64,000 nt of DNA from Acidimicrobiales bacterium (lineage in GTDB: Bacteria; Actinomycetota; Acidimicrobiia; Acidimicrobiales; CADCSY01). The DNA is taken from NCBI GenBank assembly GCA_035512495.1, contig DATKDW010000083.1:6045-70044 (forward strand). The letters are read 5' to 3'. The notes beneath the pieces were generated by a model, which was not told where the DNA came from, ran no database searches, and saw only the letters and a program-made list of their open reading frames with translations. This document shows positions 8,029 through 52,904 of the stretch, one piece after another (positions within the stretch are counted from its first letter, which is position 1; every line of letters begins with the position of its first letter). The position numbers and the translations under genes were made by a program.

Positions 8029-8050
8029 CGTCGACCGAGGCCAGCACGGG

Positions 8051-12582: not shown

Positions 12583-12622
12583 GGGACCAAGTTACCGTAG
12601 TCCCACCGACCTAGGAGAGACC

Positions 12623-13447: not shown

Positions 13448-13505
13448 AGCCGCCATTGATCGCCAAGGTCGGCGAGACCGAGCAACTGATGCCGCACCGA
13501 GCGCG

Positions 13506-13625: not shown

Positions 13626-13641
13626 ACCGAGATCAGTCGAT

Positions 13642-14022: not shown

Positions 14023-14058
14023 CCGGACTCGGACCGGTCGGGCGAGGGGCTACGGGCC

Positions 14059-14374: not shown

Positions 14375-14396
14375 AGACTGGCCTACAGCACCGGTG

Positions 14397-14855: not shown

Positions 14856-14901
14856 GAACCGCCACCGTAGGAGCGACTACCTATCACCGACACCAAATAT
14901 C

Positions 14902-14952
14902 GAACGCGGCCGCCTCTCCGGCGAGAAGGATCGGCGCGTCGCGAGCGGTCAA
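14902..14952 (+). repeat. intergenic repeat family, short copy I
   Basis: GAACGCGGCCGCCTCTCCGGCGAGAAGGATCGGCGCGTCGCGAGCGG shares the GAACGSSGC...CTCC.GCG...GATCGGC blocks. It lies 3' of the GT2 gene (stop 14961). Confidence 0.4.
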
Positions 14953-14960
14953 GTCTTCTG

Positions 14961-15749: not shown

Positions 15750-15823
15750 AGAACGAGTATCGACGACGATCGCACCTATCGGGCACTCAGTATCCCCACG
15801 AGCTGGCGCATCGCCTCCGCCCC

Positions 15824-15880
15824 GATCGGCGCATCTCCAGCGTCGATCAGGACGGATGGCGGCTAGGAATCCTGGGCCAG
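15824..15880 (+). repeat. intergenic repeat family, copy C (not adjacent to a gene 3' end)
   Basis: GATCGGCGCATCTCCAGCGTCGATCAGGACGGATGGCGGCTAGG matches the 5' half of copy B (GGCGCTTCTCCAGCGGCGATCGGGACGGCGGGTGCTAGCC). Confidence 0.5.
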
Positions 15881-15997
15881 CCGCGTGTCTGAGTGATGGT
15901 CTCGAGCACGCCGGAGCGCTCTGCCCGCTCAGCAGATCGACGTGCGGATCCGTCGGTGCGAGACTGGGACGACACGGCCATGGATCAGGAGCGCACC

Positions 15998-16393
15998 ATG
16001 TCGGGCCTCGCCATCATCACCGAAGCGTGCATCGGCGTGAAGGACCGTGCGTGTGTCGACGTGTGCCCGGTCCAGTGCATCTACGAGCTCGATCAGGCCA
16101 AGGGTGTGTTGTTCTCCGAGGACGAAGCCGGCAGCGGCGAGATCGAGAACACCCACGCGCCCGACCCGGACTCCATCGGGGTGTTCGGGGACAGCCTGCT
16201 GTACGTGAACCTGGAGGAGTGCACGTCGTGCACCGCCTGCTACCAACCCGACGTCTGCCCTGTCGGTGCGATCTATACCGAGGAAGCCGTGCCCGACGGC
16301 ACCGATCCCAAGGCCTACAACGCCGAGGACCCGCACAAGGGCCACGACCACACCTTCTTCATTCAGCTCAGCCGCGACGTCTTCGCCGACTGA
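15998..16393 (+). CDS. ferredoxin, two Fe-S cluster motifs separated by an unusually long insertion
   Basis: MSGLAIITEACIGVKDRACVDVCPVQCIY carries the Cx7Cx3CP motif. About 50 aa later comes CTSCTACYQPDVCPVGAIY. ATG 15980 is an alternative start. Confidence 0.75.
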   Translation: MSGLAIITEACIGVKDRACVDVCPVQCIYELDQAKGVLFSEDEAGSGEIENTHAPDPDSIGVFGDSLLYVNLEECTSCTACYQPDVCPVGAIYTEEAVPDGTDPKAYNAEDPHKGHDHTFFIQLSRDVFAD

Positions 16394-16688
16394 CGGTGCC
16401 GGCCCGCCATGAGCGGAAACCGGGCAGCCTGGGGGCGGTGTGCCCCGAAGCGAGCGCGATCGCCGGCATCCGATGCGTCGTGTCGACCCCCCTTGAGACC
16501 GAGAGCAGCAACCTCGACGAGGTGTCGCTGTCGCCTCCAGCTGGCCCACGGCTTGACCGTGACGGAAGACGGGCGTTGATCACGGGCCTCCTGTCGGCGA
16601 TGCCAGGCCACTCGGCGGGCCGTCTGAGCAGGACGCCACACGCCTCTGGGCGATGTCTACCGATCGCGGAAGCCTCAAATGCGGACGC

Positions 16689-16745
16689 CTATCGGCGGCA
16701 CCGATCTCCAGAGCGCGTGGTCAGCACGCCGGCACTGCCGCGGTG
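16689..16745 (+). repeat. intergenic repeat family, degenerate copy D
   Basis: CTATCGGCGGCACCGATCTCCAGAGCGCG...CGCCGGCACTGCCGCGG lies 3' of the minus-strand relE (stop 16766), in the same gene-relative orientation as copies A, B and I. Confidence 0.4.
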
Positions 16746-16765
16746 AGCCTCTCCGCGCCGACTGG

Positions 16766-17029
16766 TCAGGATCTGTAGACGTCTCGGCGGTGACCCACGC
16801 TCACCACGAGCACGACGAGGCGACGGTCGTGCACCTCGTAGATGATCCGATAGTCACCGACCCGAACTCGGTAGGCGCGCTCCTCGCCCTTGAGGGCCAC
16901 ACACCCCGGCGGACGAGGCTCGTCTGCCAGCAGGTCGATCGCAGCTCGGATCCGCTGCTGCTCACGCCTGGGCAAACGGGCAAGCGACTTCACCGCTCGA
17001 CGCGCGATGTGGACCTCATAGCGGCTCAC
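16766..17029 (-). CDS. relE: type II toxin, RelE/ParE superfamily
   Basis: 87 aa, with YRVRVGDYRIIYEVHDRRLVVLVVSVGHRRDVY. It overlaps the upstream antitoxin gene by 4 bp. Confidence 0.85.
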   Translation of the reverse strand: MSRYEVHIARRAVKSLARLPRREQQRIRAAIDLLADEPRPPGCVALKGEERAYRVRVGDYRIIYEVHDRRLVVLVVSVGHRRDVYRS

Positions 17030-17277
17030 GCCAAGCCCAGGTCCGCCTTGACCTCATCCCAAGGCACGTAGTCGTCCTCTTCCCGAGCGGCTTCGAGCTC
17101 GTATCGATCGATCGCGTCCTCAGCCGCCTCGACGACCTGGTCGTACAGGTCGGCGTCGAGGATCACGGCCACGCGTCGACCTCGCCGCGTGACATAGACG
17201 GGCTCGCGTGATCGCCTCGCCTCGTCGATGATCTCGGCAAGCCGGCTCCTCGCTTCGCTCACGGCGATATCGCTCAT
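17026..17277 (-). CDS. type II antitoxin, Phd/YefM family
   Basis: MSDIAVSEARSRLAEIIDEARRSREPVYVTRRGRRVAVILDADLYD has an acidic C-terminus. ATG 17292 is an alternative start. Confidence 0.85.
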   Translation of the reverse strand: MSDIAVSEARSRLAEIIDEARRSREPVYVTRRGRRVAVILDADLYDQVVEAAEDAIDRYELEAAREEDDYVPWDEVKADLGLA

Positions 17278-17335
17278 GTACGAATCGTACATGAAGCCTC
17301 GGCGGGGGCGCCTCCTCGGGCTCGGGCGCCTTCCA

Positions 17336-17374
17336 CGGCAGAGGTCAGGGGTTCGAGTCCCTTTGCGCCCACCA
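17336..17374 (+). other. tRNA 3' remnant (variable loop, T-arm, acceptor 3' strand, encoded CCA); not a complete tRNA
   Basis: CGGCAGAGGTC-AGGGG-TTCGAGT-CCCTT-TGCGCCC-A-CCA. The T-loop TTCGAGT and stem AGGGG/CCCTT are canonical. No D-arm or intact anticodon arm lies upstream. Confidence 0.6.
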
Positions 17375-17394
17375 CGCGCCTGCGCCTTCCGGCG

Positions 17395-18453
17395 CTAGAT
17401 CGCCAGCTCGCTCTTGGTGCGGCCCTGGCGGGACCAGTAGGAGTCGGTGCGCCCGAGGCGGAAGTGTGCGGGCTTCTCGTCGTCGGCCAGCAGCTCGGTC
17501 TCCAACCACAGGCGCTTGAGGTGGCGGACCTTGCCGCTGGCGCGGTCGTCCTCGTAGCCCTTGCGGGCGTGGAGCACGTGGTAGTTGTTGATGAACTGCA
17601 TGTCGCCCGGCTGCAGAACCATGCTCACGTGGTGCTTCGGGTCGGCGCACATCTCGTCGACTCGGTCGAGGGCTTCCCGGGCCCGGTCGGAGATCAGCGG
17701 GGCATCCTCGTGGCGGGTCACCGAGTCGATGTACGGGCGGATGTAGCGCACGAAGAGCCGGGCGCCCTTCCGGCTGCAGATCGGCATCAGGTACCAGCTC
17801 TTCCCTCCTGGCGGCTGCTCGCCTCGGAGGTCGTAGGGATAGGGCTGGTAGAGCTCGGCGGCCAGCTCCGGGTCGGTGCGCACCAGCTCGTTGTGGATGG
17901 TGACGATGTTGGCCACCAAGCTGGCACCGCCTCGCAGGCCGGGGTCGAGGCAGAACAGCCCGACGAGGTCGGAGCCGTCGGAGTGGAAGGGGAACGGCAC
18001 ACCGCCGATCTCGTTGCCCCGTGAGGTCCCGTCGGTGTAGCTGCGTCCCTGGTCGGTCACATCGCCGAGCAGGTGGCCCTTGGCGTTCTGCGGCCAGGGC
18101 GCACCGAGGTGGGCACCGACGCCCCAGTAGATCGTCGACGCCCGCTCCTTCGAGTAGCGCTCCATGGGCAGACCGCGGATCAGCGTGACCCCCCGGCCGT
18201 TGATGAGCTCGTCGGTGATGCGGGCCAGCTCGGGGCCGAGGGTCGGGAGGGGGAAGTGGTCCTTGGTGACGTCGAGCACGTCGTCGCAGCGGCGCTCGGC
18301 TTCGTGGAGGGCGGCGTCGAGCTCGGACACGTGCTCGTCGCTGAGGTGGAAGACGTAGCTCTCGCCGAGGTCGTCACGGCGCCACTCGCACTGCTCCTCC
18401 AGCGGCTCGAGGTCGGACGGGTCGACGGCGGTGCTGGTCTCGGTCGTGGTCAT
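17395..18453 (-). CDS. TauD/TfdA-family Fe(II)/2-oxoglutarate dioxygenase
   Basis: The start at ATG 18453 is preceded by GGAGG. FPFHSDGSD carries the HxD iron ligands, and NNYHVLHARKGYED is present near the C-terminus. Confidence 0.8.
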   Translation of the reverse strand: MTTTETSTAVDPSDLEPLEEQCEWRRDDLGESYVFHLSDEHVSELDAALHEAERRCDDVLDVTKDHFPLPTLGPELARITDELINGRGVTLIRGLPMERYSKERASTIYWGVGAHLGAPWPQNAKGHLLGDVTDQGRSYTDGTSRGNEIGGVPFPFHSDGSDLVGLFCLDPGLRGGASLVANIVTIHNELVRTDPELAAELYQPYPYDLRGEQPPGGKSWYLMPICSRKGARLFVRYIRPYIDSVTRHEDAPLISDRAREALDRVDEMCADPKHHVSMVLQPGDMQFINNYHVLHARKGYEDDRASGKVRHLKRLWLETELLADDEKPAHFRLGRTDSYWSRQGRTKSELAI

Positions 18454-35766: not shown

Positions 35767-36948
35767 ATGGGCGGTACCGTGCCACAACCCCGCCCCCTCC
35801 GCGATCGAGGAGCCGTGACCGGACACGACGCCCCCGCACCGAGCACCGCCGACCTCCCCGAGCGGGTTCGCCTCGTGGTGCTCTTCGGGGGCCAGTCGGC
35901 CGAGCACGAGGTCTCGTGCACCTCGGCCGCCTCGGTGCTGGCCGCCGCCGACCCCGACCGCTACGACCTCCAGCCGGTGGGCATCACCCCCGACGGGCGA
36001 TGGGTCCTGGCCGAGGACGCCATCGCCGCCCTCGCCGCTGGTGCATCGGGCCTCCCGTCTGCCCTCACCGCCGCCGGCCCCGAGCTCGACCCCCTCCCCA
36101 CGGTGGCCGCTCGGCGCGGCCCCGGTGGCGGCAACGACGTCCCCACCGTGGTCCTGCCCCTCCTCCACGGTCCCCTCGGCGAGGACGGCACCATCCAGGG
36201 GATGCTCGAGCTCGCCGGGGTCCCCTACGTGGGCTCGGGCGTGCTGGGCTCGGCGCTGTGCATGGACAAGGCCAAGGCCAAGGAGGTGCTGGCCCACCAC
36301 GGCGTGGCCCAACCCCGCTGGATCGCCCGTCGCGACACGGGCATCGAGGCCGACCTCGTCGACCGGGTCACCGCCGAGCTCGGGTGGCCGGTGTTCGTGA
36401 AGCCGGCCAACCTCGGCTCGTCGGTCGGCATCTCGAAGGTCGCCGACCCCTACGGGCTCGCCGCCGCGGTCGAGGAGGCCCTGCGCTTCGACGAGTGGGT
36501 GGTCATCGAGGAGGCGATCGTCGGCCGGGAGATCGAGTGCGCCGTGCTCGGGGGGGCCGACCCCATCGCCTCGGTCCCCGGCGAGATCCTGCCGTCGGCC
36601 GAGTTCTACGACTACGACGACAAGTACTCGGGTGACGGGGCCGACCTCGCCGTGCCCGCCGACCTCCCCGACGACGTCACCGCCGAGGTGCAGCGGCTGG
36701 CCCTGACCACCTTCGCCGCCCTGCGGGCGGATGGGTTCGCGCGGGTGGACCTCTTCTACGAGGAGGCCGGCCGGGGGCTGCTCGTCAACGAGGTCAACAC
36801 CATCCCCGGCTTCACCCCGCACTCGATGTACCCCCGGCTGTGGGCCGCCTCCGGGCTGCCCTACGACCTGCTCATCGACCGCCTCGTCGCCCTTGCCCTC
36901 GAGCGCCGCGCCCACCGCGCCGCCAAGGTCGGCCGCCCGCGCGACTGA
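35767..36948 (+). CDS. ddl: D-alanine--D-alanine ligase
   Basis: VLFGGQSAEHEVS, LHGPLGEDGTIQG, FVKPANLGSSVGI, EFYDYDDKY and NEVNTIPGFT are all present. Start at ATG 35767 or GTG 35815. Confidence 0.85.
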   Translation: MGGTVPQPRPLRDRGAVTGHDAPAPSTADLPERVRLVVLFGGQSAEHEVSCTSAASVLAAADPDRYDLQPVGITPDGRWVLAEDAIAALAAGASGLPSALTAAGPELDPLPTVAARRGPGGGNDVPTVVLPLLHGPLGEDGTIQGMLELAGVPYVGSGVLGSALCMDKAKAKEVLAHHGVAQPRWIARRDTGIEADLVDRVTAELGWPVFVKPANLGSSVGISKVADPYGLAAAVEEALRFDEWVVIEEAIVGREIECAVLGGADPIASVPGEILPSAEFYDYDDKYSGDGADLAVPADLPDDVTAEVQRLALTTFAALRADGFARVDLFYEEAGRGLLVNEVNTIPGFTPHSMYPRLWAASGLPYDLLIDRLVALALERRAHRAAKVGRPRD

Positions 36949-37012
36949 CACCGCGGCACCAGCCCCCGGGGGACCGCGAGCAGGCGCGGCGCCAGGGGCC
37001 AGGAGGGCGCAG

Positions 37013-39400
37013 ATGCCCGCCGTCCTCGGCACCTCCACTAGACAGGGGGCCGTGATCGCCGACGCGCTGGCCGGCAAGCGCCTCTTCGTCACCGGCTCGA
37101 CCGGCTTCCTCGGCACCGCGCTGGTGGAGCGGCTGCTGCGCTCCGTGCCGGGCTGCGAGCTGGTGCTCCTGATCCGCCCGGGCCGACAGCGAACCGTCGA
37201 GCAGCGCCTCGCCCGCGAGCTCATCCGCAACGATGCCTTCGACCGCCTCCGCGCCGAGCTGGGCGAAGGCTTCGACGACGAGGTGGCTCGCCGGGTGCAA
37301 GTGGTGGCCGGCGACGTGAGCAGCGACGGGCTCGGGCTCGACGACGCCGGAAGAGAGCTGCTCGCCACGTGCGACACGGTCATCCACTCCGCCGCCACCG
37401 TCGCCTTCGACTCGCCCCTCGACCGCGCCGTGGAGGTCAACCTCCTCGGACCCTCCCGCATCGCCACCACCCTCAACGAGATCGGGTCCACCGCCCACCT
37501 CGTCGCCGTCTCGACCTGCTACGTGGCCGGGAACCGTCGGGGGCGGGCGCCCGAGCTGCCGCTGCTCGACCAGCCGTTCACCCCCGACGTCGACTGGCGG
37601 GCCGAGGTGGCGGCTGCCCGCCGCACCCGAGCCGACGTGGAGGCAGCCAGTCGCACCCCAGCGATGCTCGCCCGCTTCCGCAAGGAGGCTCGTGGCGAGC
37701 TCGGTGCCGCCGGCACGCCGCTCCTGGCCTCCAAGGGCGAGAAGCGGCGCGACGCCTGGGTGGCCAGCGAGCTGGTCGAGGCGGGCAGGGCACGTGCCCG
37801 GTCCCTCGGCTGGCCCGACGCCTACGCCTACACCAAGGCGCTCGGCGAGCAGGCCCTGCTCGAGACGCGCGGTGCGGTGCCGGTCACCATCGTGCGTCCC
37901 TCGATCATCGAGTCGGCCCTCGCCGAACCCAGCCCGGGCTGGATCCGAGGCTTCCGCATGGCCGAACCGGTCATCATCAGCTACGCCCAGGGCCTGCTGA
38001 AGGAGTTCCCCGGGATCCCCGAGGGCGTGGTCGACGTCATCCCCGTCGACCTGGTCGTCGCCGCGGTCATCGACGCTGCCGCCCGGGGCCCCGAGGAGCA
38101 GCCCGCCGTGGTGCAGGTGGCATCCGGCTCCGCCAACCCGCTCGGCTACCGCCACCTCGTCGACCTGGTGCAGGGCTGGTTCTCGGAGCACCCCCTCTAC
38201 GACGCCAAGGGCCAGCCGATCCTCGTGCCGGAGTGGACCTTCCCCGGCCGCGGTCGCGTGCAGAAGCAGCTGGAGCGGGCCTCGTCGATCATGGACCGCG
38301 CCGAGAAGGCCCTCGCCACCCTCCCGCTGCGGGGCACCCAGGCCCGGTGGTCGGCCACCCTCGACGACAAGCGGGCCGACGTCGACCGTGCCCTCACCTA
38401 CGTCGAGCTCTACGGCGCCTACGCCGAGACCGAGGCCGAGTTCTCCGTCGACCGCCTCCTCGAGCGCTTCCGCTCGCTCGACGACGACGACCGTGCCACG
38501 TTCTGCTTCGACCCCGGAGTTGTCGACTGGGACCACTACGTCACGTCGATCCACCTCCCGTCGGTGGTGGCCCACGCACGGGTCAAGACCACGCCCGGCG
38601 CCACCAACCGCGAGAGCCGCAGCTCCCGCCTGCGCCGCCAGGTGCTGGCACCCGAGCGCCACCTCGCCGCCTTCGACCTCGAGAACACCCTGATCGCCTC
38701 GAACGTGGTCGAGTCGTACTCCTGGCTGGCGACCAGGCGGCTGGGGCCCGACGACCGCCTCCGCTTCGTGCTCAAGACGCTCCGCGAGGCACCGGGGCTG
38801 CTCGCCCTCGACCGCAAGGACCGGGGCGACTTCCTTCGCCACTTCTACCGGCGCTACGAGGGCGCGCCGGTCCGCCAGCTCGACGAGGACGCCGCCGAGC
38901 TGTTCAGCCGCCTGATCCTCACCAAGTCGTTCCCCGCCGGCTTCCGGCGTGTCCGGGAGCACCGGGCGCTCGGCCACCGCACGGTGCTCATCACCGGTGC
39001 GCTCGACATCGTGGTGGAGCGCAACCTCGCCCCCCTCTTCGACGACATCGTGTGCGCCCGCATGGGCGTGGTCGACGGGCGCTACACCGGCGAGCTCACC
39101 TCGGCGCCCCCCACCGGCGAGGCGCGCGCCCAGGCCATGGCCGACTACGCCGAGGCCGAGGGACTCGAGCTCGAGCAGTCGGTCGCCTACGCCGACTCGG
39201 CCAGCGACCTGCCGATGCTCGAAGCCGTCGGCTTCCCGGTGGCGGTCAACCCCGAGACCCGCCTGTCGGCCATCGCCCGCAAGCGGGGCTGGCTGGTCGA
39301 GGACTGGACCAAGGCCCCGGGCGCCCCCCGACCCCTGCTCCCCATCGGCCCGATGACCCGCCGCACGTCGTTCCGCCGCCCCGCCGGGGCACGACGATGA
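37013..39400 (+). CDS. fusion protein: fatty acyl-CoA/ACP reductase (NAD_binding_4 plus FAR_C-like) fused to a HAD-IB hydrolase domain
   Basis: AGGAGG lies 6 nt before ATG 37013. LFVTGSTGFLGTALVERLL and YAYTKALGEQ (YxxxK) mark the reductase. The C-terminal HAD-IB part has AAFDLENTL (motif I as DxE) and YADSASDLPML. Confidence 0.75.
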   Translation: MPAVLGTSTRQGAVIADALAGKRLFVTGSTGFLGTALVERLLRSVPGCELVLLIRPGRQRTVEQRLARELIRNDAFDRLRAELGEGFDDEVARRVQVVAGDVSSDGLGLDDAGRELLATCDTVIHSAATVAFDSPLDRAVEVNLLGPSRIATTLNEIGSTAHLVAVSTCYVAGNRRGRAPELPLLDQPFTPDVDWRAEVAAARRTRADVEAASRTPAMLARFRKEARGELGAAGTPLLASKGEKRRDAWVASELVEAGRARARSLGWPDAYAYTKALGEQALLETRGAVPVTIVRPSIIESALAEPSPGWIRGFRMAEPVIISYAQGLLKEFPGIPEGVVDVIPVDLVVAAVIDAAARGPEEQPAVVQVASGSANPLGYRHLVDLVQGWFSEHPLYDAKGQPILVPEWTFPGRGRVQKQLERASSIMDRAEKALATLPLRGTQARWSATLDDKRADVDRALTYVELYGAYAETEAEFSVDRLLERFRSLDDDDRATFCFDPGVVDWDHYVTSIHLPSVVAHARVKTTPGATNRESRSSRLRRQVLAPERHLAAFDLENTLIASNVVESYSWLATRRLGPDDRLRFVLKTLREAPGLLALDRKDRGDFLRHFYRRYEGAPVRQLDEDAAELFSRLILTKSFPAGFRRVREHRALGHRTVLITGALDIVVERNLAPLFDDIVCARMGVVDGRYTGELTSAPPTGEARAQAMADYAEAEGLELEQSVAYADSASDLPMLEAVGFPVAVNPETRLSAIARKRGWLVEDWTKAPGAPRPLLPIGPMTRRTSFRRPAGARR

Positions 39401-40587
39401 AGGCACTGCGCTTCGAGCGCTCGGTCCCGCGCTTCGCCGCCGCCCGTCTCGCCGGGTCGCTGGCCCATGGCCGGGGCGCCACGGTCGGACCCCTGCGCCT
39501 CCGCGATGTCGACCTTCCCGACCTCCCCGGCCCCGGCTGGCAGCGCGTGAGGCCCCGTCTCGCCGGCATCTGCGGCTCCGACCTCGCCACCATCGACGCC
39601 ACCTCGAGCCGCTGGTTCGAGCCCATCGTCAGCTTCCCCTTCGTTCCGGGCCACGAGGTCGTGGGCGACCTCGACGACGGCACGCGTGTGGTGCTCCAAC
39701 CCGTGCTCGGCTGCGCCGCTCGCGGCATCGAGCCGCCGTGCGATGCGTGCACCTCGGGCCAGGTGGGGCGCTGCGCCAACATCGCCTTCGGCCACCTCGA
39801 TCCCGGCCTGCAGACCGGCTACTGCGCCGCCACCGGCGGAGGCTGGTCCACCGCCCTCGTGGCCCACGACAGCCAGCTGCACCGGGTGCCCGACGCCCTC
39901 AGCGACGAGGCAGCGGTGATGGTGGAGCCCACCGCCTGCGCCGTGCGTGGCGCGTTCCGAGCCGGCACCGACGCCACCACCGTGGCCGTCATCGGCGCCG
40001 GCACCCTCGGCCTGTGCACCATCGCCGCCCTGCGCCGGCTGGTGCTCACCGACGACCAGCACATCGTCGCCGCCGCCAAGCACCCCGAGCAGCGGGCCCT
40101 CGCGCGCGAGCTCGGGGCCACCACCGTGGTCGAGCCCGACCAGCTCGACCGGGTGGCCCGCCGCCTCACCGGCTCCATGGCCACCGGCGACGGCGAGATC
40201 GGACGCCTCACCGGCGGCGTCGACGTCACCGTCGACTGCGTGGGCAGCGCCGACAGCCTGGCCCAGGCCCTCGCCGTCACCGCTCCCGGCGGCCGCATCG
40301 TGATGGTCGGCATGCCCGGCCGGCTCACCGTCGACCTCACCCCGCTGTGGCACCGCGAGATCGAGCTGGTCGGGGCCTACGCCTACGGCGTGGAGCCCAC
40401 CGGCCGACCCACCTTCGACCTCGCATTCGAGCTGGTGGCCGACGCCGGCCTCGAACGCCTCGTCTCGGCCACCTACCCCCTCGATCGCTTCACCGACGCC
40501 ATCGCCCACGCCGCCGAGGCAGGTCGCCGCGGCGCGGTCAAGATCGCCTTCGACCTCCGCACCGAGAAGGAAAGAGACCGACTGTGA
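39397..40587 (+). CDS. zinc-type medium-chain alcohol dehydrogenase family protein
   Basis: ATGA overlap with the previous stop. GICGSDL and PFVPGHEVVG are the Zn ligands. The Rossmann motif is VAVIGAGTLGL. Confidence 0.8.
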   Translation: MKALRFERSVPRFAAARLAGSLAHGRGATVGPLRLRDVDLPDLPGPGWQRVRPRLAGICGSDLATIDATSSRWFEPIVSFPFVPGHEVVGDLDDGTRVVLQPVLGCAARGIEPPCDACTSGQVGRCANIAFGHLDPGLQTGYCAATGGGWSTALVAHDSQLHRVPDALSDEAAVMVEPTACAVRGAFRAGTDATTVAVIGAGTLGLCTIAALRRLVLTDDQHIVAAAKHPEQRALARELGATTVVEPDQLDRVARRLTGSMATGDGEIGRLTGGVDVTVDCVGSADSLAQALAVTAPGGRIVMVGMPGRLTVDLTPLWHREIELVGAYAYGVEPTGRPTFDLAFELVADAGLERLVSATYPLDRFTDAIAHAAEAGRRGAVKIAFDLRTEKERDRL

Positions 40588-42182
40588 CTCGTAAGACGGC
40601 ACGGCCAGGCTTCGTGCTGGAGGTCGACCGCTCGACCCCGCCGACGATGTTCATGGACGGTGAGGGCTTCCGCCTCGAGCGCCTGCCAGTGGGGCGCAGC
40701 CGGATCATCTACCCCGGCGAGCCGCTGCCGACCCTGCGCGACCCCGAGGCCGCCATCCGTCACGCCCTGCTGAACCCGGTGGGCCAGGACCCGCTGCCGG
40801 CCCAGCTCTTCCCCGGCATGAAGCTCACGATCGCCTTCGACGACATCTCCTTGCCCCTGCCGAAGATGCGCCGGCCCGACATCCGCCAGCGCGTGATCGA
40901 GGCGGTGCTCGACCTGGCCGCCGAGGCCGGCGTCGACGACGTCCACATCATCGCCGCCCTGGCGCTGCACCGGCGCATGACCGAGGCCGAGCTGCGCCAC
41001 TGCCTCGGCGACCGCATCTACGACGCCTTCTCCCCCGACGGCACCCTCTACAACCACGACGCCGAGGACCCCGACGGCATGGCCCACCTGGGCGAGACCG
41101 AGCAGGGCGAGGAGGTCGAGATCAACAAGCGGGCCGCCGAGTCCGACCTGCTGGTCTACGTCAACATCAACCTCGTCTCGATGGACGGCGGCCACAAGTC
41201 CACCGCCACCGGGCTGGCGTCGTACAAGAGCCTGCGCCACCACCACAACGTCAAGACCATGCGCCACAGTCGGTCGTTCATGGACCAGCACCGCTCCGAG
41301 CTGCACTCCTCCAACTGGCGCATGGGCGAGGTGATCCGCAAGGCGGGCATCAAGATCTTCCAGATCGAGACCACCCTCAACAACGACACCTTCCCGGCCC
41401 CATTCGACTTCCTCCAGAAGCGGGAGTGGGAGTGGACGGCACGTGACCGCGTGACCTTCGTGGCAGCCAAGAAGGGACTCGACACGCTGCCCATGAGCGC
41501 TCGCCGGGCGATCTTCCAGTCGATCGAGGCGCCCCACGACATGACGGGCATCACCGCCGGCGACATCGAGGAGGTCCACGCCATCACCACCCAGCGGGTG
41601 TGGGACCAACAGCTCGTCCAGGTGGAGGGCCAGACCGACATCCTCACCATGGGGCTGCCGTACCTGTGCCCCTACAACGTGAACTCGATCATGAACCCGA
41701 TCCTGGTGGCCTGCCAGGGGCTCGGGTACTTCTTCAACCTGTACCGCAACAAGCCCCTGGTGCGCGAGGGCGGCGTGGTGATCATGACCCACCCCACCCC
41801 CTGGGACTTCCACCCGGTCCACCACCCCAGCTACATCGACTTCTTCGAGCAGGTGCTGGCCGAGACCACCGACCCGGTCGAGATCGAGAAGCGCTTCGAG
41901 ACGTCGTTCGCCGAAGACGAGTGGTACCGCCACCTCTACCGGACGAGCTACGCCTACCACGGCGTGCACCCGTTCTACATGTGGTACTGGTGCGCACACG
42001 CCCTCCAGCACCTCGGCGCGGTGATCATCGTCGGCGGCGACGCCAGGGCGGTGCGCCGCCTCGGCTTCCGCCCCGCCTCCACCATGCGAGACGCGCTCGA
42101 GATGGCCGAGGACACCGTGGGGCGCGACCCATCGGTCACCCACCTCCACGCCCCGCCGCTCCTGGTGGCCGAGGTCAGCTGA
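40584..42182 (+). CDS. LarA-like (lactate racemase N-terminal domain, DUF2088) protein
   Basis: GTGA overlap with the previous stop. LTIAFDDISLPLP, VNINLVSMDGGHKSTATG (a GGxKS-like lysine motif) and about 530 aa in length. Assigned from memory of LarA-family motifs. Confidence 0.6.
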   Translation: MTRKTARPGFVLEVDRSTPPTMFMDGEGFRLERLPVGRSRIIYPGEPLPTLRDPEAAIRHALLNPVGQDPLPAQLFPGMKLTIAFDDISLPLPKMRRPDIRQRVIEAVLDLAAEAGVDDVHIIAALALHRRMTEAELRHCLGDRIYDAFSPDGTLYNHDAEDPDGMAHLGETEQGEEVEINKRAAESDLLVYVNINLVSMDGGHKSTATGLASYKSLRHHHNVKTMRHSRSFMDQHRSELHSSNWRMGEVIRKAGIKIFQIETTLNNDTFPAPFDFLQKREWEWTARDRVTFVAAKKGLDTLPMSARRAIFQSIEAPHDMTGITAGDIEEVHAITTQRVWDQQLVQVEGQTDILTMGLPYLCPYNVNSIMNPILVACQGLGYFFNLYRNKPLVREGGVVIMTHPTPWDFHPVHHPSYIDFFEQVLAETTDPVEIEKRFETSFAEDEWYRHLYRTSYAYHGVHPFYMWYWCAHALQHLGAVIIVGGDARAVRRLGFRPASTMRDALEMAEDTVGRDPSVTHLHAPPLLVAEVS

Positions 42183-43106
42183 GTGGCCGGCCGCCGCCTG
42201 CCCGACCCGGTCCGCCGGCTCCTTCGACCCGGCTTCCCCTGGTCGGCGCCCACCACCCCACTCGGCATCGAGCCGCTCGAGCAGGAGCCCACCACCGGCG
42301 CCCACTACGCCACCGGCTGGGCCCGTCGCCAGCCGGCGCGCTACGCCCGCTTCTTGGTGGTCGAGGGACCCATGAAGGCGGTGGTCCGAGCCCTCGCCGC
42401 GCCCACGGTCCACGGCACCGACCGCCTCGCCGCCCTCGAGGGGTCGGTGATCTTCGCCGCCAACCACCAGAGCCACCTCGACGCGCCGCTCATGCTCACG
42501 ACCATCCCCGAGCCCTGGCGGCACCGCATGGTGGTGGGGGCGGCAGCCGACTACTTCTTCACCAGCCGTGCCCGCTCCGCCCTCTCGGCCCTGGCCATGG
42601 GCGCCTTCCCGATCGAGCGCAGCAAGGTGACCCGCCGCTCGGCCGACCAGGCCGCCGAGCTGCTCGGCAAGGGGTGGAGCCTGCTGATCTTCCCCGAGGG
42701 CGGCCGCAGCCCCGACGGGTGGGCCCAGGACCACCGCGGCGGCGCCGCCTACCTGTCGTCGCGCTGCGGCGTCCCGGTGGTCCCGGTGCACCTCCAGGGC
42801 ACGGGCCGCATCTTCGGCCGGGGCGACACGCGCCCGCGCCCGGGCACCACAAGGGTCACCTTCGGCTCGCCCATGCGGCCCGAGGAGGGCGAGAACGCCA
42901 CTCGGTTCGCCCAGCGGGTCGAGCGGGCCGTCGACGCCCTCGCCGACGAAGCGTCCACCGACTGGTGGTCGGCGCGCCGTCGGGCGGCCAGCGGGGCGAC
43001 ACCCTCGCTCTCGGGACCAGCGACGAGCGGTTGGCGCCGGTCGTGGGCCCTCGGTGACCGCAAGGGCCGGCCGTCTCGCACCCGCCGGCCTTGGCCTGAT
43101 CTGTAG
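42183..43106 (+). CDS. lysophospholipid (1-acyl-sn-glycerol-3-phosphate type) acyltransferase
   Basis: GTG 42183 directly follows the TGA. The HX4D motif is ANHQSHLD, and FPEGGRS is present. Confidence 0.8.
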   Translation: MAGRRLPDPVRRLLRPGFPWSAPTTPLGIEPLEQEPTTGAHYATGWARRQPARYARFLVVEGPMKAVVRALAAPTVHGTDRLAALEGSVIFAANHQSHLDAPLMLTTIPEPWRHRMVVGAAADYFFTSRARSALSALAMGAFPIERSKVTRRSADQAAELLGKGWSLLIFPEGGRSPDGWAQDHRGGAAYLSSRCGVPVVPVHLQGTGRIFGRGDTRPRPGTTRVTFGSPMRPEEGENATRFAQRVERAVDALADEASTDWWSARRRAASGATPSLSGPATSGWRRSWALGDRKGRPSRTRRPWPDL

Positions 43107-43259
43107 GAGCAGCGTCCGGCTGAGACCCCCGATCGGTTCTTCGCTCGCCGGGGACGGCAGGTACGATCGTCCCTCGCACGACCGGGGCCATGGGCAACGA
43201 CGCCTCCCCTGCTTCAACGAGGAAGCGTCCCGGTCATCCCCCCGACGGAGGAGAGCCCC

Positions 43260-46200
43260 ATGCGCCCCCTGACCGAACGTGACGCCTGTGGCATCGGCTT
43301 CGTGGCCGACGCCCACGGTCGCTCCAGCCGGGAGATCGTCACCGCCGCCCTCGGGGGCCTCGCCTGCGTGAAGCACCGCGGCGCCGTCGCCGCCGACGCC
43401 CGCTCGGCCGACGGTGCCGGCGTGCTCGTCCCCATCCCCGCCGCCATCTTCGGCGAGGGCAACGGCGTCGCGAGCCTCTTCGTGCGCGGCGACGTCGACC
43501 CCCGTCCTGCCATCGAGGCTGCCGCCACCGAGGAGGGTCTTGCCATCGTCGACTGGCGGGAGCCGCCGACCGACGACGCCCACCTCGGCGACCAGGCCCG
43601 CCGGGCCCGCCCGGCCATGCTCCAGGCCACCTTCACCTCGCCCGGCGACACCACCGACCGGGCCCACGAGATCGCCGCCTACCGCTTCCGCCGGCGCATG
43701 GGCACCACCGAGGGCGTCTACGTGGTGTCGTGCTCGTTCCGCACCGTCGTGTACAAGGGCCTCGCCGCCGCCGACGCCGTCGGCGACTTCTACCTCGACC
43801 TCGCCGACGAGCGCTTCGCCGCGCCCTTCACGATCTTCCACCAGCGCTTCTCCACCAACACCGCGCCGTCGTGGGAGCGGGCCCAGCCGTTCCGGATGAT
43901 CTGCCACAACGGCGAGATCAACGCCATCCAGGGCAACCACCATCGCATGCTCGCCCGGGCCGAGCTCGGGACCGAGGCGGCCGGGCTCGGGGCCGAGGGG
44001 CTCTTCCGGCCGCTGCTCGACCCCGAGGACTCCGACTCCGGCATGCTCGACGCCGCCGTCGAGCTGCTGGTGCGCGCAGGCCGCGACCCCCGCCACGCCG
44101 TGGCCATGCTCGTGCCGGAGGCGTGGGAGAACACCCGTGACCTCGACCCCGACGTCCGAGGGTTCTACCGCTACCACTCCGCCCTCATGGAGCCCTGGGA
44201 CGGGCCGGCCGGGCTCGTGTTCACCGACGGCCTCGGGGTCGGTGCTTCGCTCGACCGCAACGGCCTCCGACCGCTGCGCTACGCCGCCTGCGAGGACGGC
44301 TTCATCGCCGTGTGCTCCGAGGTCGGCGCCGTCGACGTGTCGGGCCACGGAAGCGTCACCCGGGGGCGCCTCGGACCCGGCCAGATGCTCTTCGTCGACC
44401 CCGCCAGAGGGCTGCAGCTCGACGCCGAGATCAAGGTGCGCATCGCTGCAGGCTCGTACGCCCGCTGGGCCGCCGACGGCTTCCGGGACCTCTCCCGCGG
44501 GGCGCCACTCGTCGACACCCCCGGGCCCGACGAGCTCGCCCGCCGCCAGGCGGCCCACGGCTACACCAAGGAGGAGCTGGCCATGGTGCTCAAGCCCATG
44601 GCCTCCGACGCCCACGAGCCCACCTTCTCCATGGGCGACGACTCCCCGCTCCCCCACCTGTCCGACCGCCCGCGACCGGTGCAGCACTACCTTCGACAGC
44701 GCTTCGCCCAGGTCACCAACCCGCCGATCGACCCGGTGCGCGAGCGCCGCGTCATGACGCTGCGCACGCTGCTCGGGCCCCGTCAGCCGATCCTCACCGA
44801 GAGCGCCGACGCGGCCCGGATCCTCACCCTGCGGTCGTTCTTCCTGTACCCGAGCGGTGTCGACCAGCTCTACGACGAGGACCGCTGCCCGTTCATCACC
44901 ATCCCCCTCGACGCCACCTTCCCCGTGGCCGACGGACCCGCGGGCCTCCGGTCGGCCGTGGAGCGGATGTGCGACAACGCCGTCGCCGCCGTCCGCGGCG
45001 GGACGGGCATCCTCATCATCGACGACAGCGCGGTCGGCCCAGAGCGTGCCGCCGTCCCGTCGATCCTCGCCTCCGGCGCCGTGCACCAGCGCCTCATCGC
45101 CGAGAAGCTGCGGTCGCGCACGAGCCTGGTCGTCGTCAGCGACAGCGCCCGCGAGACCCACGAGTTCGCGGCACTGCTCGGCTACGGCGCCGACGCCATC
45201 TGCCCCCGCCTGGCGCTGCAGACCGTGGCCTCGGAGGCCGACGCCGACGACAGCGGCGACGTGGTCAGCCCCGAGGCCCAGCACCGCTTCCAGTCGGCCA
45301 TCGAGGAGGGGGTGCTCAAGATCCTGTCGAAGATGGGGATCTCGACCATCGACTCCTACCGCGGCGCCCAGATCTTCGAGGTCATCGGCCTCGGCGCCGA
45401 GGTGGTCGACGTGTGCTTCACCGGCTCGGCATCCGTCGTCGGGGGCGTCGGCTGGGACGACCTCGGCGCCGACTCCCTCACCAACCACGCCGCCGCCTTC
45501 CCGGCCGACGCCGAGACCGCCGTCGAGCTCACCTCCCCCGGCTTCTACCGGGTGCGCAAGAACGGCGACTACCACGGCAAGAGCAAGGAGGTCGTCGACG
45601 CCCTCAACGACCTGTCGCTGGTCAAGGAGACCGAGGAGATGGCGGCCGCCCACCTCCTCCAGCGCGCCATCAAGGGCGACGACTACGACCTGTACGAGCG
45701 CTTCTCGACCATGGTCAACGAGCGGCCGGCGACCGAGCTCGCCGACCTGCTCGAGCTGGTCCCCCTCGAGACCGGTCCCGTCCCCGTCGACGACGTCGAG
45801 CCGGCATCGGAGATCGCCAAGCGCTTCTCCACCGGCGCCATGTCGCACGGCGCGCTGTCCAAGGAGGCCCACGAGACCCTCGCCGAGGCCATGAACCTCA
45901 TCGGCGCCAGCTCCAACTGCGGCGAGGGTGGCGAGGCCCCCGAGCGCTTCCGCACGCGGGGCCAGGCCACCGGCGACAAGAACTCCAAGATCAAGCAGAT
46001 CGCCTCCGGCCGCTTCGGCGTGACCCCGGAGTACGTGGCCTACGCCGACGAGCTCCAGATCAAGATGGCCCAGGGCTCCAAGCCCGGCGAGGGCGGCCAG
46101 CTGCCGGGCCACAAGGTCTCGGAGGAGATCGCCCGCCTCCGCCACACCCAGCCGGGCGTGGCGCTCATCTCGCCACCGCCGCACCACGACATCTACTCCA

Positions 46201-47693
46201 TCGAGGACCTCGCCCAGCTGATCTACGACCTCAAGCAGGTCAACGGGGCCGACGTCTCCGTGAAGCTCGTCGCCGGCGACGGCGTGGGCACCATCGCTGC
46301 CGGCGTGGTCAAGGCGCTGGCCGATGTCGTCCACATCTCCGGTGCCAACGGCGGCACCGGCGCCTCGCCGCTCTCGTCGATCAAGCACGCCGGCATGCCG
46401 TGGGAGATCGGCCTGGCCGAGATCCAGCAGGTGCTGGTGGCCAACCAGCTGCGCGACCGGGTGCGGGTCCGGGTCGACGGCGGGTTCATGACCGGGCGCC
46501 ATGTCGCCATCGCCGCCCTCCTCGGCGCCGACGAGTACTCCTTCGGCACCGCCGCCATGATCGCCGAGGGCTGCATCATGCTCAGGGCGTGCCACCGCGA
46601 CACCTGCAAGCCGGGCATCGCCACCCAGCGCCCCAACCTGCGGGCCAACTTCACCGGCACCCCTGAGGGGGTGGCCGCCTACTTCCTGTACATCGCCGAC
46701 GAGGTCCGCCACCTGCTGGCCTCACTGGGGCTCCGGTCGCTCGACGAGGCCATCGGGCGCGTCGAGTGCCTCCGCCAGCGCGCCGTGGGCGATGCCCGCG
46801 CCGATTCCGTCGACCTGGCTCCTCTGCTCGAGGCGCCGGAGGACCTCGAGGCGGTCCGCCACTTCGTGGCCACCGACCCCATCCAGAAGGCCCGGTCCGA
46901 CCTCGGCGACCGGCTGCTCGCCGACGCCTTCCGCGCCATCTGGGACGGCGACGACATCGAGCTCGAGTACGAGATCCGCAACGCCGACCGCGCCATCGGA
47001 GCCGCCCTCGGAGGTGCCGTGGCCCTCGAGTACGGCGAGCTGTCGCCTCGGGGCACCGCCGCCGTGCGATTCCGTGGCTCGGCCGGTCAGAGCCTCGGCG
47101 CCTTCCTCACCAACGGCGTCGAGATCGAGCTCGTCGGCGAGGCGAACGACTACGTCGGCAAGGGCATGGGCGGTGGCCGGATCGTGATCATCCCGCCGTC
47201 CGACGACGCCGGCGACCCCGTGCTCGCCGGCAACACCTGCCTCTACGGCGCCACCGGCGGCGACCTGTTCATCGCCGGCGCCGCCGGCGAGCGCTTCGCC
47301 GTCCGCAACTCCGGCGCCACCGCCGTGGTGGAGGGCACCGGTGACCACTGCTGCGAGTACATGACCGGCGGGACCGTCGTCGTCCTCGGCGAGGTCGGCT
47401 ACAACCTCGGCGCCGGCATGACCGGCGGGGAGGCGTTCGTCTTCGACCCCAACACCCAGCTCATGTCCCGGCTCAACGCCGCCCTCGTCGAGGCCGAGCG
47501 ACCCGATGCCGAGTCGCTGACCGAGCTGCGCTGGCTCGTGGAGCGCCACGCCGAGCTCACCGGCTCCACCCGGGCGGCCGAGCTGCTCAAGGACTGGGAC
47601 GCGGCCGAGGAGCACTTCTGGCACGTCCTGCCCGTCGACCGCGTCCGCCGCATCGAGCAGCAGTCCGCCGTCCGGGTGGCCTCCACCAGCTGA
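43260..47693 (+). CDS. gltB: glutamate synthase large subunit
   Basis: 1477 aa. The N-terminal amidotransferase is RDACGIGFVA (Cys1 after processing). The FMN/Fe-S region and the C-terminal GXGXG domain are present. GGAGGAG lies before the ATG. Confidence 0.95.
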   Translation: MRPLTERDACGIGFVADAHGRSSREIVTAALGGLACVKHRGAVAADARSADGAGVLVPIPAAIFGEGNGVASLFVRGDVDPRPAIEAAATEEGLAIVDWREPPTDDAHLGDQARRARPAMLQATFTSPGDTTDRAHEIAAYRFRRRMGTTEGVYVVSCSFRTVVYKGLAAADAVGDFYLDLADERFAAPFTIFHQRFSTNTAPSWERAQPFRMICHNGEINAIQGNHHRMLARAELGTEAAGLGAEGLFRPLLDPEDSDSGMLDAAVELLVRAGRDPRHAVAMLVPEAWENTRDLDPDVRGFYRYHSALMEPWDGPAGLVFTDGLGVGASLDRNGLRPLRYAACEDGFIAVCSEVGAVDVSGHGSVTRGRLGPGQMLFVDPARGLQLDAEIKVRIAAGSYARWAADGFRDLSRGAPLVDTPGPDELARRQAAHGYTKEELAMVLKPMASDAHEPTFSMGDDSPLPHLSDRPRPVQHYLRQRFAQVTNPPIDPVRERRVMTLRTLLGPRQPILTESADAARILTLRSFFLYPSGVDQLYDEDRCPFITIPLDATFPVADGPAGLRSAVERMCDNAVAAVRGGTGILIIDDSAVGPERAAVPSILASGAVHQRLIAEKLRSRTSLVVVSDSARETHEFAALLGYGADAICPRLALQTVASEADADDSGDVVSPEAQHRFQSAIEEGVLKILSKMGISTIDSYRGAQIFEVIGLGAEVVDVCFTGSASVVGGVGWDDLGADSLTNHAAAFPADAETAVELTSPGFYRVRKNGDYHGKSKEVVDALNDLSLVKETEEMAAAHLLQRAIKGDDYDLYERFSTMVNERPATELADLLELVPLETGPVPVDDVEPASEIAKRFSTGAMSHGALSKEAHETLAEAMNLIGASSNCGEGGEAPERFRTRGQATGDKNSKIKQIASGRFGVTPEYVAYADELQIKMAQGSKPGEGGQLPGHKVSEEIARLRHTQPGVALISPPPHHDIYSIEDLAQLIYDLKQVNGADVSVKLVAGDGVGTIAAGVVKALADVVHISGANGGTGASPLSSIKHAGMPWEIGLAEIQQVLVANQLRDRVRVRVDGGFMTGRHVAIAALLGADEYSFGTAAMIAEGCIMLRACHRDTCKPGIATQRPNLRANFTGTPEGVAAYFLYIADEVRHLLASLGLRSLDEAIGRVECLRQRAVGDARADSVDLAPLLEAPEDLEAVRHFVATDPIQKARSDLGDRLLADAFRAIWDGDDIELEYEIRNADRAIGAALGGAVALEYGELSPRGTAAVRFRGSAGQSLGAFLTNGVEIELVGEANDYVGKGMGGGRIVIIPPSDDAGDPVLAGNTCLYGATGGDLFIAGAAGERFAVRNSGATAVVEGTGDHCCEYMTGGTVVVLGEVGYNLGAGMTGGEAFVFDPNTQLMSRLNAALVEAERPDAESLTELRWLVERHAELTGSTRAAELLKDWDAAEEHFWHVLPVDRVRRIEQQSAVRVASTS

Positions 47694-51482: not shown

Positions 51483-52904
51483 TCAGTCGGTGCCCGGGCG
51501 GCGGGTCGTCTCGTCGGACGACCCGTCGTGGCCCGCCGGCAGCGCCCGGCGGATCTCCTCGTCGGTCGGCTCCCGGGCCACGTGGGCCTCGGGCGGGAGG
51601 AGCGCGGTGATGGCCGCCATGATCGACTTGGTGTCGACGTCGACATCGTCGCCGGCCACGTGGAACGGCGCGCCGGCTCGCACCGTCACCAGCGGCGGGC
51701 TGGTGAGGTTGAGCACGTTTGGCACCCGGGCGCTGCGGGGCCACACCCGCTCGGTGCCCCACAGCCCGAGCGGCACGATCGGTGCGCCCGACATGGCGGC
51801 GAGGCGGGCCGCCCCCCAGCGGCCGTGCAGCTCGGTGTCGTAGAAGGCCCGGCCCCGCGGGATGGTGCCTTGGGGCATCATCGCCACCAGCTCACCGGCG
51901 GCCAGGGCGCGGGCTGCCTCCACCAACGGCTCGTCGGAGCCGGTGCCCCGCTCGACGCGGATGCCGCCCATGGCACGTGCCAGCTGGCCCACGACCGGGG
52001 CGTCGAAGACCTCCTTCTTGCCGAGGAAGCGCAGCGGCCGCCCCGACCGGGCGACGGCCAGCGCCACCGCGGCGGTGTCGAAGTAGCTGCGGTGGTTGGC
52101 CACCACGATGGCGGGACCCTCGGTGGGGATGTGGTCGGTGCCGTCGATGTCGAAGCGGGCGAAGGGGAAGGCCTCCGGGCGCATGAAGGGCCGCAGCGCC
52201 TGGAACGGCTCGACCCCTGCGAGCTTGGGGACCCCGGGCGGCACGTCGAGGTGGAGCGTCGGCCAGCGGCGCACCGCGGCCAGGATCCGCAGCCGGGGGT
52301 CGGGGTTGACGGCGGTGGGGTGACCCACGGCGGAGAGGAGCGGCGTGTCGTAGATGCTGTCGGAGTACGCCCAGCTCTCGCGCAGGTCGACGCCGTGCTC
52401 CTCGGCCCACGCCCGCACCGCCGCGAGCTTGCCCGGGCCCCACACGAAGCTCCCCACGATCGATCCGTCGTAGAGGCCCTCCGGCGTGCGGCCGTACCTC
52501 GTGGCGATGACGTCGTCGAGACCCAGCGCGTCGGCGAAGGGCTTCACCATGTCGAACGGCGAGGTGGTGGCCAACACCACCGGCCGGCCGGCGAGGCGGT
52601 GCTCGTCCATGATCTCCCTGGCATAGGGCTGCACCGCCCCGGTGAGCACCTTGGCCGCCTCGGTGGCCGCCGCCACCACGGCGTCGGCAGACCATCCGGA
52701 GGCGAAGGAGGCGGCGGCCCGGGCCAGGCCCATGCCCGGCAGGGTCTCGCCCACCGCGTCGAAGAACTTGTAGATCAGGTTCTCGCCCGGGATGTCGCGG
52801 TCGGGCACGACCCCCGCCTGCTTGAGCGCGGCGGTGATGACCGGCCCGCTGGCGCCCTTGAGGATGGTCCGGTCGAGGTCGAAGAACGCTGCACCTGTGG
52901 CCAT
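51483..52904 (-). CDS. fusion protein: HAD-IB hydrolase plus lysophospholipid acyltransferase (PlsC-like)
   Basis: The N-terminus is AAFFDLDRTIL (DxD), followed by YSDSIYDTPLL. The C-terminal half has VANHRSYFD (HX4D) and MPQGTIP. Confidence 0.8.
   Translation of the reverse strand: MATGAAFFDLDRTILKGASGPVITAALKQAGVVPDRDIPGENLIYKFFDAVGETLPGMGLARAAASFASGWSADAVVAAATEAAKVLTGAVQPYAREIMDEHRLAGRPVVLATTSPFDMVKPFADALGLDDVIATRYGRTPEGLYDGSIVGSFVWGPGKLAAVRAWAEEHGVDLRESWAYSDSIYDTPLLSAVGHPTAVNPDPRLRILAAVRRWPTLHLDVPPGVPKLAGVEPFQALRPFMRPEAFPFARFDIDGTDHIPTEGPAIVVANHRSYFDTAAVALAVARSGRPLRFLGKKEVFDAPVVGQLARAMGGIRVERGTGSDEPLVEAARALAAGELVAMMPQGTIPRGRAFYDTELHGRWGAARLAAMSGAPIVPLGLWGTERVWPRSARVPNVLNLTSPPLVTVRAGAPFHVAGDDVDVDTKSIMAAITALLPPEAHVAREPTDEEIRRALPAGHDGSSDETTRRPGTD

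Follow-up and report, generated by a model that had tools for sequence, protein, structure and literature searches.

We examined a gene for a homologue of the nickel-pincer enzyme LarA in an Acidimicrobiales bacterium (assembly GCA_035512495.1). The gene lies within a 64-kb stretch of contig DATKDW010000083.1 (contig 83 of the assembly; positions 6,045 to 70,044 of the forward strand), which was analyzed as a whole and is referred to here as the window. The LarA homologue (LarAH) stands third in a row of four genes that are coupled in translation. It follows genes for a fatty acyl reductase (FAR) fused to a HAD phosphatase (FAR-HAD) and for a zinc-dependent dehydrogenase, and it precedes a gene for a PlsC-type acyltransferase (Table 1). 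The FAR-HAD and dehydrogenase genes overlap by ATGA, the dehydrogenase and LarAH genes overlap by GTGA, and the TGA stop codon of LarAH is followed directly by the GTG start codon of PlsC.

Table 1. Genes of the LarAH operon and active-site positions within LarAH (window coordinates; aa, amino acids)
Feature	Position	Strand	Remarks
LarA homologue, group 14 (ElbC-type), 532 aa	40584..42182	+	Gene under study
His129 codon (in ALHRR)	40968..40970	+	Equivalent to the first catalytic histidine, His108, of L. plantarum LarA; invariant in 36 intact relatives
Asn194-Ile195-Asn196 loop at the site of the second catalytic histidine (His174)	41163..41171	+	No histidine there
GGHKS motif, residues 202-206	41187..41201	+	Lys205 equivalent to cofactor-tethering Lys184; Lys205 invariant in 36 relatives
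His221 codon (Lys205+16)	41244..41246	+	Equivalent to nickel ligand His200; invariant in 36 relatives
FAR-HAD fusion, 795 aa: fatty acyl-coenzyme A/acyl carrier protein reductase (NAD_binding_4 + Sterile) + HAD-IB phosphatase	37013..39400	+	
Zn-dependent medium-chain dehydrogenase (polyol/secondary-alcohol type), 396 aa	39397..40587	+	Pfam ADH_N, ADH_zinc_N
PlsC-type acyltransferase, 307 aa	42183..43106	+	Pfam Acyltransferase, 7.5e-20

The reading frame of LarAH is open, and its G+C content at third codon positions is 0.96, as real genes of this genome have. In the public collection, the gene was called automatically from a start 10 codons downstream, which yields a product of 522 aa; because relatives keep the N-terminal sequence RPGFVLEVD, the earlier start, giving 532 aa, is supported. 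The protein matches Pfam Lar_N (PF09861) with E=2.8e-40 and 138.2 bits, compared to a gathering cut-off of 23.3, and it matches the NCBIfam profile NF052592 (LarAH_14_15_16) with 909.8 bits, compared to a curated cut-off of 740, in an alignment that spans positions 1-519 of the 520 in the profile. NF052592 is named "NPN-dependent hydroxyacid isomerase, LarAH14/15/16 family," where NPN stands for the nickel-pincer nucleotide cofactor. The Pfam LarA_C profile matched with E=0.19 only, and the C-terminal residues 347-521 aligned to the LarA structure 9q2u in a phmmer search (1.4e-9). An AlphaFold model of the protein scored 91.4 for predicted local distance difference test (pLDDT) and 0.91 for predicted template modeling (pTM). 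Its best matches in the PDB were the single-histidine LarA structures 9q3k and 9q3j (TM-score 0.72-0.85), followed by classical LarAs, and it matched 9q3k, 9q3j, 9eia, and 5huq along its whole length, corresponding to the two-domain LarA fold. Judged from its sequence, the gene product is a genuine LarA-like enzyme of a known, uncharacterized nickel-pincer subgroup.

That subgroup was delimited by Desguin et al. 2020 (Sci Rep 10:18123) as group 14, of "unknown function," with members in Acidimicrobium ferrooxidans, Ilumatobacter coccineus, Rubrobacter xylanophilus, and Frankia (Afer_1430, YM304_22240, Rxyl_2107, and Franean1_4168). The neighbors of group 14 genes tabulated there include acyltransferases (COG0204, 88%), HAD proteins (COG0560, 88%), COG1063 proteins (88%), and thioester reductases (COG3320, 50%), and groups 15 and 16 have similar gene contexts. 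The window gene shares with group 14 a full-length match above the cut-off, the signature D, L, H, a gap at His174, K, H, and the same four kinds of neighbor (COG0204, COG0560, COG1063, and COG3320). We found nothing essential in which it differs; it is a further Acidimicrobiales member. Because the supplement of Desguin et al. already tabulated both, neither the family nor its lipid-type context is new. The gene is thus a further member of a known uncharacterized family, and its interest lies in a testable nickel-pincer proposal for ether-lipid synthesis, developed below.

We established residue equivalences from alignments to 9q2u, 9q3j, 6d6z, and 9eia, with residue numbering after Gatreddi et al. 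2025, and we assessed invariance in an alignment of 36 intact relatives, which belong to Acidimicrobiia, Rubrobacter-like actinobacteria, and Myxococcota. Asp87 corresponds to Asp72 of Lactiplantibacillus plantarum LarA, which binds the cofactor ribose, and is invariant in this set, as are His129, Lys205, and His221 (Table 1), the last of which ends an HHH run at residues 219-221. With D87, H129, K205, and H221 all kept, the protein looks cofactor-competent. The loop that occupies the site of the second catalytic histidine reads V-N-I-N-L-V, with Ile195 placed ten residues ahead of Lys205. HMMER placed Asn196 opposite Asn187 in its alignment to 9q3j and opposite His173 in that to 9eia; in the alignment to 9q2u, the corresponding Asn falls inside an insertion. 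Among the intact relatives, N194 is invariant and N196 is present in at least 90%. The carboxylate-binding Arg75 aligns with Leu90 here, and in Dataset S2 of Desguin et al. 2020 all group-14 rows have a gap at Gln295, Asn at Lys298, and a gap at His174. Tyr364 and His462 are equivalent to Tyr307 and His401 in the active site of Streptococcus plurextorum LarA, and its His306 is replaced by Pro363.

The best sequence match (E=5e-38) and the best structural match (TM-score 0.77/0.85) are to the single-histidine LarAs of group 17 from S. plurextorum and Blautia wexlerae (9q2u, 9q3k, 9q3j; Gatreddi et al. 2025). Like these, the window protein is about 500 aa long, has the same extended C-terminal domain, lacks the second catalytic histidine, and conserves the catalytic His, the Lys, the nickel-binding His, Tyr307 (Y364), and His401 (H462). 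Unlike them, it has Pro363 at the His306 position and a shorter Asn-bearing loop, identity is only 22-25%, and its gene lies among lipid genes, whereas the group 17 genes lie among glycolytic and sugar genes. With L. plantarum LarA (5huq), it shares the fold, the equivalents of Asp72, His108, Lys184, and His200, and a predicted dependence on larB, larC, and larE. It differs from that enzyme in having no equivalents of His174, Arg75, Gln295, and Lys298, in being about 100 residues longer, and in being encoded away from lar genes.

These residues bear directly on what the enzyme may do. The original prediction had suggested inversion of a hydroxyl stereocenter on a lipid precursor. A racemase or epimerase of this kind might convert sn-glycerol-3-phosphate to sn-glycerol-1-phosphate or act on a 2-hydroxy-acyl chain. 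Every characterized LarA homologue inverts a C2 hydroxyl, H129, K205, and H221 are retained, and the gene context points to glycerol phosphate. However, the protein lacks the second acid/base histidine, which would have to give the proton back from the other side, and the alignments place no other histidine there; it could therefore not work as a two-base racemase, and Gatreddi et al. 2025 argue that one-histidine homologues cannot be two-way racemases. In addition, because the equivalents of Arg75, Gln295, and Lys298 are replaced, there is no carboxylate pocket. The Frankia LarAH14, the sole group-14 member assayed, was inactive on all seven hydroxy acids tested when it was purified and supplied with cofactor (Desguin et al. 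2020). Given the replaced carboxylate binders and this inactivity, the substrate is probably not a hydroxy acid, and action on lactate appears very unlikely. We therefore regard stereo-inversion as improbable. Of the original claims about the active site, the retention of the cofactor-binding lysine in GGHKS and of several histidines held up, and an alignment with characterized LarAs confirmed the first histidine, the lysine, the nickel histidine, and the aspartate but not the second histidine or Arg75. On the same residues and the LarAH14 result, the fallback that had been offered, a non-racemase function, is the better reading.

An enzyme of this kind would need the cofactor made by LarB, LarC, and LarE. 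As originally noted, the 64-kb window contains no larB, larC, or larE. A profile search of the organism's own genome detected all three, with scores of 239 bits (larB), 407 bits (larC), and 287 bits (larE), each exceeding its curated cut-off. Contig 40 carries larB and larC next to each other, and contig 82 carries larE. The window gene is the sole Lar_N gene of this genome. The surroundings of larB-larC and of larE are unrelated to it (prephenate dehydratase, a GGDEF protein, a permease, and flavoproteins), and neither neighborhood contains an aldo-keto reductase-type candidate for NphT, an enzyme in which the nickel-pincer cofactor shuttles hydride (PMC13524815). Because the cofactor genes are present elsewhere in the genome and the cofactor residues are retained, the assignment to a LarA-like enzyme stands, and the profile searches gave Lar_N and NF052592 rather than another family.

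We then considered whether LarAH and the cofactor genes occur together across the phylum, using a sample of 301 genomes in which carriers were defined by a LarAH14-16 gene above the cut-off (n=73). We detected larC in 67 of the 73 carriers compared to 147 of the 228 other genomes (Fisher p=2.6e-6); the six carriers without it all belong to one family. Within the organism's own class, all 12 carriers in the sample had larC and none of the 10 non-carriers did.

A search of species-representative genomes yielded more than 597 relatives. Of these, the 80 best have 72-81% identity and are nearly all labelled Acidimicrobiia, Acidimicrobiales, or simply Actinomycetota; those with names include Candidatus Poriferisocius, which is a sponge symbiont, as well as Microthrix, Ilumatobacteraceae, and Aquihabitans. 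We tabulated gene order in 42 Acidimicrobiia loci, judging each gene wherever the flank reached it, and FAR-HAD, LarAH, and PlsC were present in the same order in all 42. Ten of the 42 loci (L088, L093, L095, L096, L100, L106, L107, L110, L113, and L115) lacked the zinc-dependent dehydrogenase, and in these FAR-HAD is followed directly by LarAH; several of the ten bear the name Microthrix. LarAH is the best conserved of the four proteins (72-76% identity), followed by FAR-HAD (60-74%), the dehydrogenase (49-67%), and PlsC (49-64%). When open reading frames were clustered over 80 related loci, no additional lipid gene proved to be conserved; apart from the operon itself, conservation extended only to ddl and murF, upstream. 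Groups 14 to 16 are large: a search of 1.84 billion cluster representatives returned 465 matches at E<=1e-30. The representatives sampled split into intact members and degenerate members that have lost His129, Lys205, and/or His221 (among 50%-cluster representatives, P0249, P0252, P0254, P0262, P0265, P0273, and others). The degenerate members look like pseudo-enzymes, to judge from these losses, and resemble group 16 of Desguin et al.

MXAN_1529 of Myxococcus xanthus is listed in group 15 (Desguin et al. 2020, Dataset S2), and MXAN_1528 is elbD, the key ether-lipid gene. Because the elbABCDE operon runs from MXAN_1531 to MXAN_1527 (PMC13012113), MXAN_1529 is elbC. In the Myxococcus DNA, the Lar_N gene has as its two neighbors a HAD gene and a gene for a 1470-aa protein with NAD_binding_4, Sterile, AMP-binding, PP-binding, and Acyltransferase domains, and two Epimerase-family genes flank this group. 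The window LarAH is 50% identical to ElbC (MXAN_1529) over 523 aa. The HAD part of FAR-HAD is 36% identical to ElbB (E=7e-33), its reductase part is 29% identical to the reductase domain of ElbD (E=2.5e-46), and PlsC is 34% identical to the acyltransferase domain of ElbD (E=1.8e-18). ElbC also has the same cofactor residues and the same N-x-N loop, with HAD, reductase, and acyltransferase functions encoded next to it. On these alignments, the window LarAH is the counterpart of ElbC, and the operon matches elb domain for domain (HAD to ElbB, LarAH to ElbC, reductase and acyltransferase to ElbD). The two operons differ in how the parts are joined: reductase and acyltransferase form the single 1470-aa ElbD in Myxococcus and are separate proteins here, whereas ElbB is a separate protein with a DxD motif and its counterpart here is a HAD domain fused to the reductase, with DxE.

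The position of LarAH between an alcohol dehydrogenase (ADH) and an acyltransferase, as first described, is confirmed by a zinc-dependent medium-chain dehydrogenase upstream and a PlsC-type protein downstream, and the proposed lipid-operon setting is supported. Overall, racemase activity is unlikely; the tie to lipids has become firmer and now points specifically to ElbC. Because it is the ElbC counterpart, LarAH is a testable candidate for a step in bacterial ether-lipid synthesis. ElbC itself has been described as a protein whose function is not known, and the steps that lead from a fatty acid to an alkyl ether lipid as unknown (PMC9131029); the legend of the elb-operon figure in a 2026 PNAS paper gives no function for ElbC. 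Our literature search found no paper joining elbC with DUF2088 or lactate racemase and none mentioning MXAN_1529, a search combining LarA with lipid terms returned nothing relevant ("Lara" being a common author name), and a preprint on sponge ether lipids (10.64898/2026.06.23.733905) makes no mention of Acidimicrobiia or LarA.

A second line of comparison is Rubrobacter. In Rubrobacter radiotolerans (L131, CP007514.1, 3841-9581), the gene order is PlsY, FAR-HAD, ADH, and LarAH, and the products are 40% (FAR-HAD), 48% (ADH), and 57% (LarAH) identical to those of the window. This operon begins with PlsY, an acyl-phosphate:glycerol-3-phosphate (G3P) acyltransferase, and has no PlsC after LarAH. 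The abstract of the 2023 Sinninghe Damste study of these bacteria is said to mention a putative elb-like operon. Membranes of Rubrobacterales are reported to be dominated by mixed ether/ester lipids (Sinninghe Damste et al. 2023).

Taken with the elb homology, these observations bear on the nature of the product. The operon might instead make a non-ether lipid (fatty alcohols, wax-type esters, or acylated long-chain diols), with LarAH serving as a nickel-pincer hydride shuttle between fatty aldehyde and fatty alcohol, for example converting G3P and aldehyde to dihydroxyacetone phosphate (DHAP) and fatty alcohol. A FAR with a Sterile C-terminus usually yields fatty alcohols, NphT shows that NPN can move hydride between molecules, and in Myxococcus fatty aldehyde was detected and fatty alcohol was not (PMC9131029), which would suit such a shuttle. 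However, genetic evidence ties the closest characterized cluster, elb, to ether lipids (Lorenzen et al. 2014, reviewed in PMC9131029 and PMC13012113), ether lipids are reported to be abundant in Rubrobacter, which has the same operon, and the PlsY and PlsC partners point to glycerol-phosphate acceptors. We consider a non-ether product unlikely, although less so than stereo-inversion. Two further roles, in 1,2-diol lipids of the Thermomicrobium type and in inositol epimerization, were also considered and dropped, with no supporting evidence for either.

The most likely role, and one that we hold to be probable, is a non-racemizing, redox-neutral nickel-pincer step in the synthesis of 1-O-alkylglycerolipids, the reaction itself being inferred. 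A glycerol-phosphate-type substrate, as originally suggested, would fit the elb, PlsY, and PlsC context. In the proposed pathway, the reductase would convert a fatty acyl thioester to a fatty aldehyde or alcohol, and the acyltransferase and phosphatase would act on glycerol-phosphate intermediates, with PlsC acylating sn-2 and HAD removing the phosphate. The NPN of LarAH would transiently take a hydride from the sn-2 hydroxyl of a glycerol-phosphate-based intermediate, with His129 as the only base removing the proton. Removal of the hydride would activate the neighboring carbon, or the hydride would be passed on, so that the sn-1 alkyl ether bond forms; this ether-forming step would be that of alkyl-DHAP synthase in the other aerobic route. 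Because the configuration would not be inverted, one histidine would be enough.

We can envisage this step in two versions. In the first, an oxidation-activated substitution, the ketone would activate C1 and a fatty alcohol would displace an acyl group; return of the hydride to the same face would then give 1-alkyl-G3P, making a separate ketoreductase unnecessary. In the second, the hydride would be borrowed: G3P and a fatty aldehyde would form a hemiacetal, transfer of the hydride to the aldehyde-derived carbon would give 1-alkyl-DHAP, and this would be reduced by the dehydrogenase (or by ElbE). Both versions are chemically reasonable, and we make no choice between them. Our analysis shows the family membership, the kept cofactor residues, the cofactor genes of the genome, the conserved operon, and the elb homology; that this organism makes an ether lipid, which substrate is used, and what chemistry takes place are inferred.

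Several observations weigh against a nickel-pincer step in ether-lipid synthesis. Six near-complete genomes of one family in the phylum (G014, G074, G116, G183, G222, and G287; loci L125-L130) encode an intact LarAH, with all ten key residues, yet neither larB nor larC was found in them when the thresholds were relaxed; both genes do occur in sister genera of that family. Given these six genomes, the protein may work without NPN in some lineages, and they are the main argument against strict cofactor dependence. With respect to elb, the acyl-activating (AMP-binding) and acyl carrier protein domains of ElbD are missing from the four window genes, and the dehydrogenase here belongs to the medium-chain dehydrogenase/reductase superfamily, whereas ElbA and ElbE are of the short-chain type. 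The reviews report mutants only for elbA, elbB, elbD, and elbE, not for elbC. Moreover, because several elb-like clusters of sponge symbionts contain homologues of elbD and elbB only (10.64898/2026.06.23.733905), ElbC is not universal in such clusters.

The six genomes lend themselves to a different account, in which LarAH carries no cofactor and serves the reductase and acyltransferase machinery as a structural or lipid-binding subunit, a LarA fold without nickel-pincer chemistry. Degenerate, group-16-like relatives, although they have lost the His or Lys, keep their linkage to PlsC and HAD genes, which would fit a structural role as well. In the window protein, however, all the cofactor residues are kept, and they are invariant across the intact clade; the genome has larB, larC, and larE and no other Lar_N client for them; and the co-occurrence of LarAH and larC is perfect in the sampled members of its own class. 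We regard a structural subunit as slightly more improbable than even stereo-inversion, and we retain a nickel-pincer step in ether-lipid synthesis as the preferred reading.

The remaining features of the operon and its surroundings are as follows. The ATG of FAR-HAD is preceded by a Shine-Dalgarno-like AGGAGGG, and the protein matches NAD_binding_4 (2.3e-58) and HAD PF12710 (1.9e-28) in Pfam and exceeds the cut-off of the HAD-IB profile TIGR01490. HAD motif I of the fusion (window 38672-38689) reads FDLENT, that is, DxE rather than DxD. All 71 Acidimicrobiia loci with a readable motif (among loci L041-L120) have FDLE[NHQ]T, whereas Myxococcus ElbB, the Rubrobacter fusion, and a HAD-PlsC paralogue in the window itself have DxD. 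This paralogue is a separate HAD-IB/PlsC fusion of 473 aa with the canonical FDLDRT, located 8 kb downstream (window 51483-52904, reverse strand); because it adds a second set, HAD-IB and PlsC functions are encoded twice in the window, in different fusion arrangements. The top NCBIfam matches of the dehydrogenase are scyllo-inosose, idonate, and threonine dehydrogenases, all far under cut-off, and within that limit the protein is more like dehydrogenases of polyols and secondary alcohols than like those of fatty alcohols. PlsC carries its HX4D motif as HQSHLD at residue 95.

A scan of positions 36400-43400, in which the DNA is 72% G+C, found no promoter or terminator. The operon is followed after a gap of 153 bases by gltB, encoding the large subunit of glutamate synthase (43260-47693, forward strand); this adjacency occurs in only a few relatives, so the position is not conserved, and no gene for the small subunit was found among the downstream window reading frames scanned with Pfam. 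Over the window, the G+C content is about 66% in the first 18 kb (1-18000) and about 72% in the remainder, which suggests an acquired segment in the first 18 kb.

Two questions meet in the LarAH gene: the role of the one-histidine LarA homologues, and the formation of the ether bond in the ElbD pathway together with the purpose of ElbC. A bolder proposal, which we offer tentatively and consider possible but doubtful, is that the enzyme missing from the AGPS-independent aerobic pathway, the one that forms the ether bond, is an ElbC-type LarA homologue, which would apply "borrowed-hydride" NPN chemistry to an intermediate based on glycerol phosphate. In that case, the abundant Acidimicrobiia that live in soil, water, sludge, and sponges would be unrecognized producers of 1-O-alkylglycerol lipids with nickel-dependent membranes. 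If the link between the one-histidine LarA homologues and the ElbD pathway is right, nickel-pincer chemistry would reach beyond the racemization of hydroxy acids into membrane-lipid synthesis, nickel would be required for ether-lipid membranes, and a widespread actinobacterial class would join the sources of environmental alkylglycerol biomarkers.

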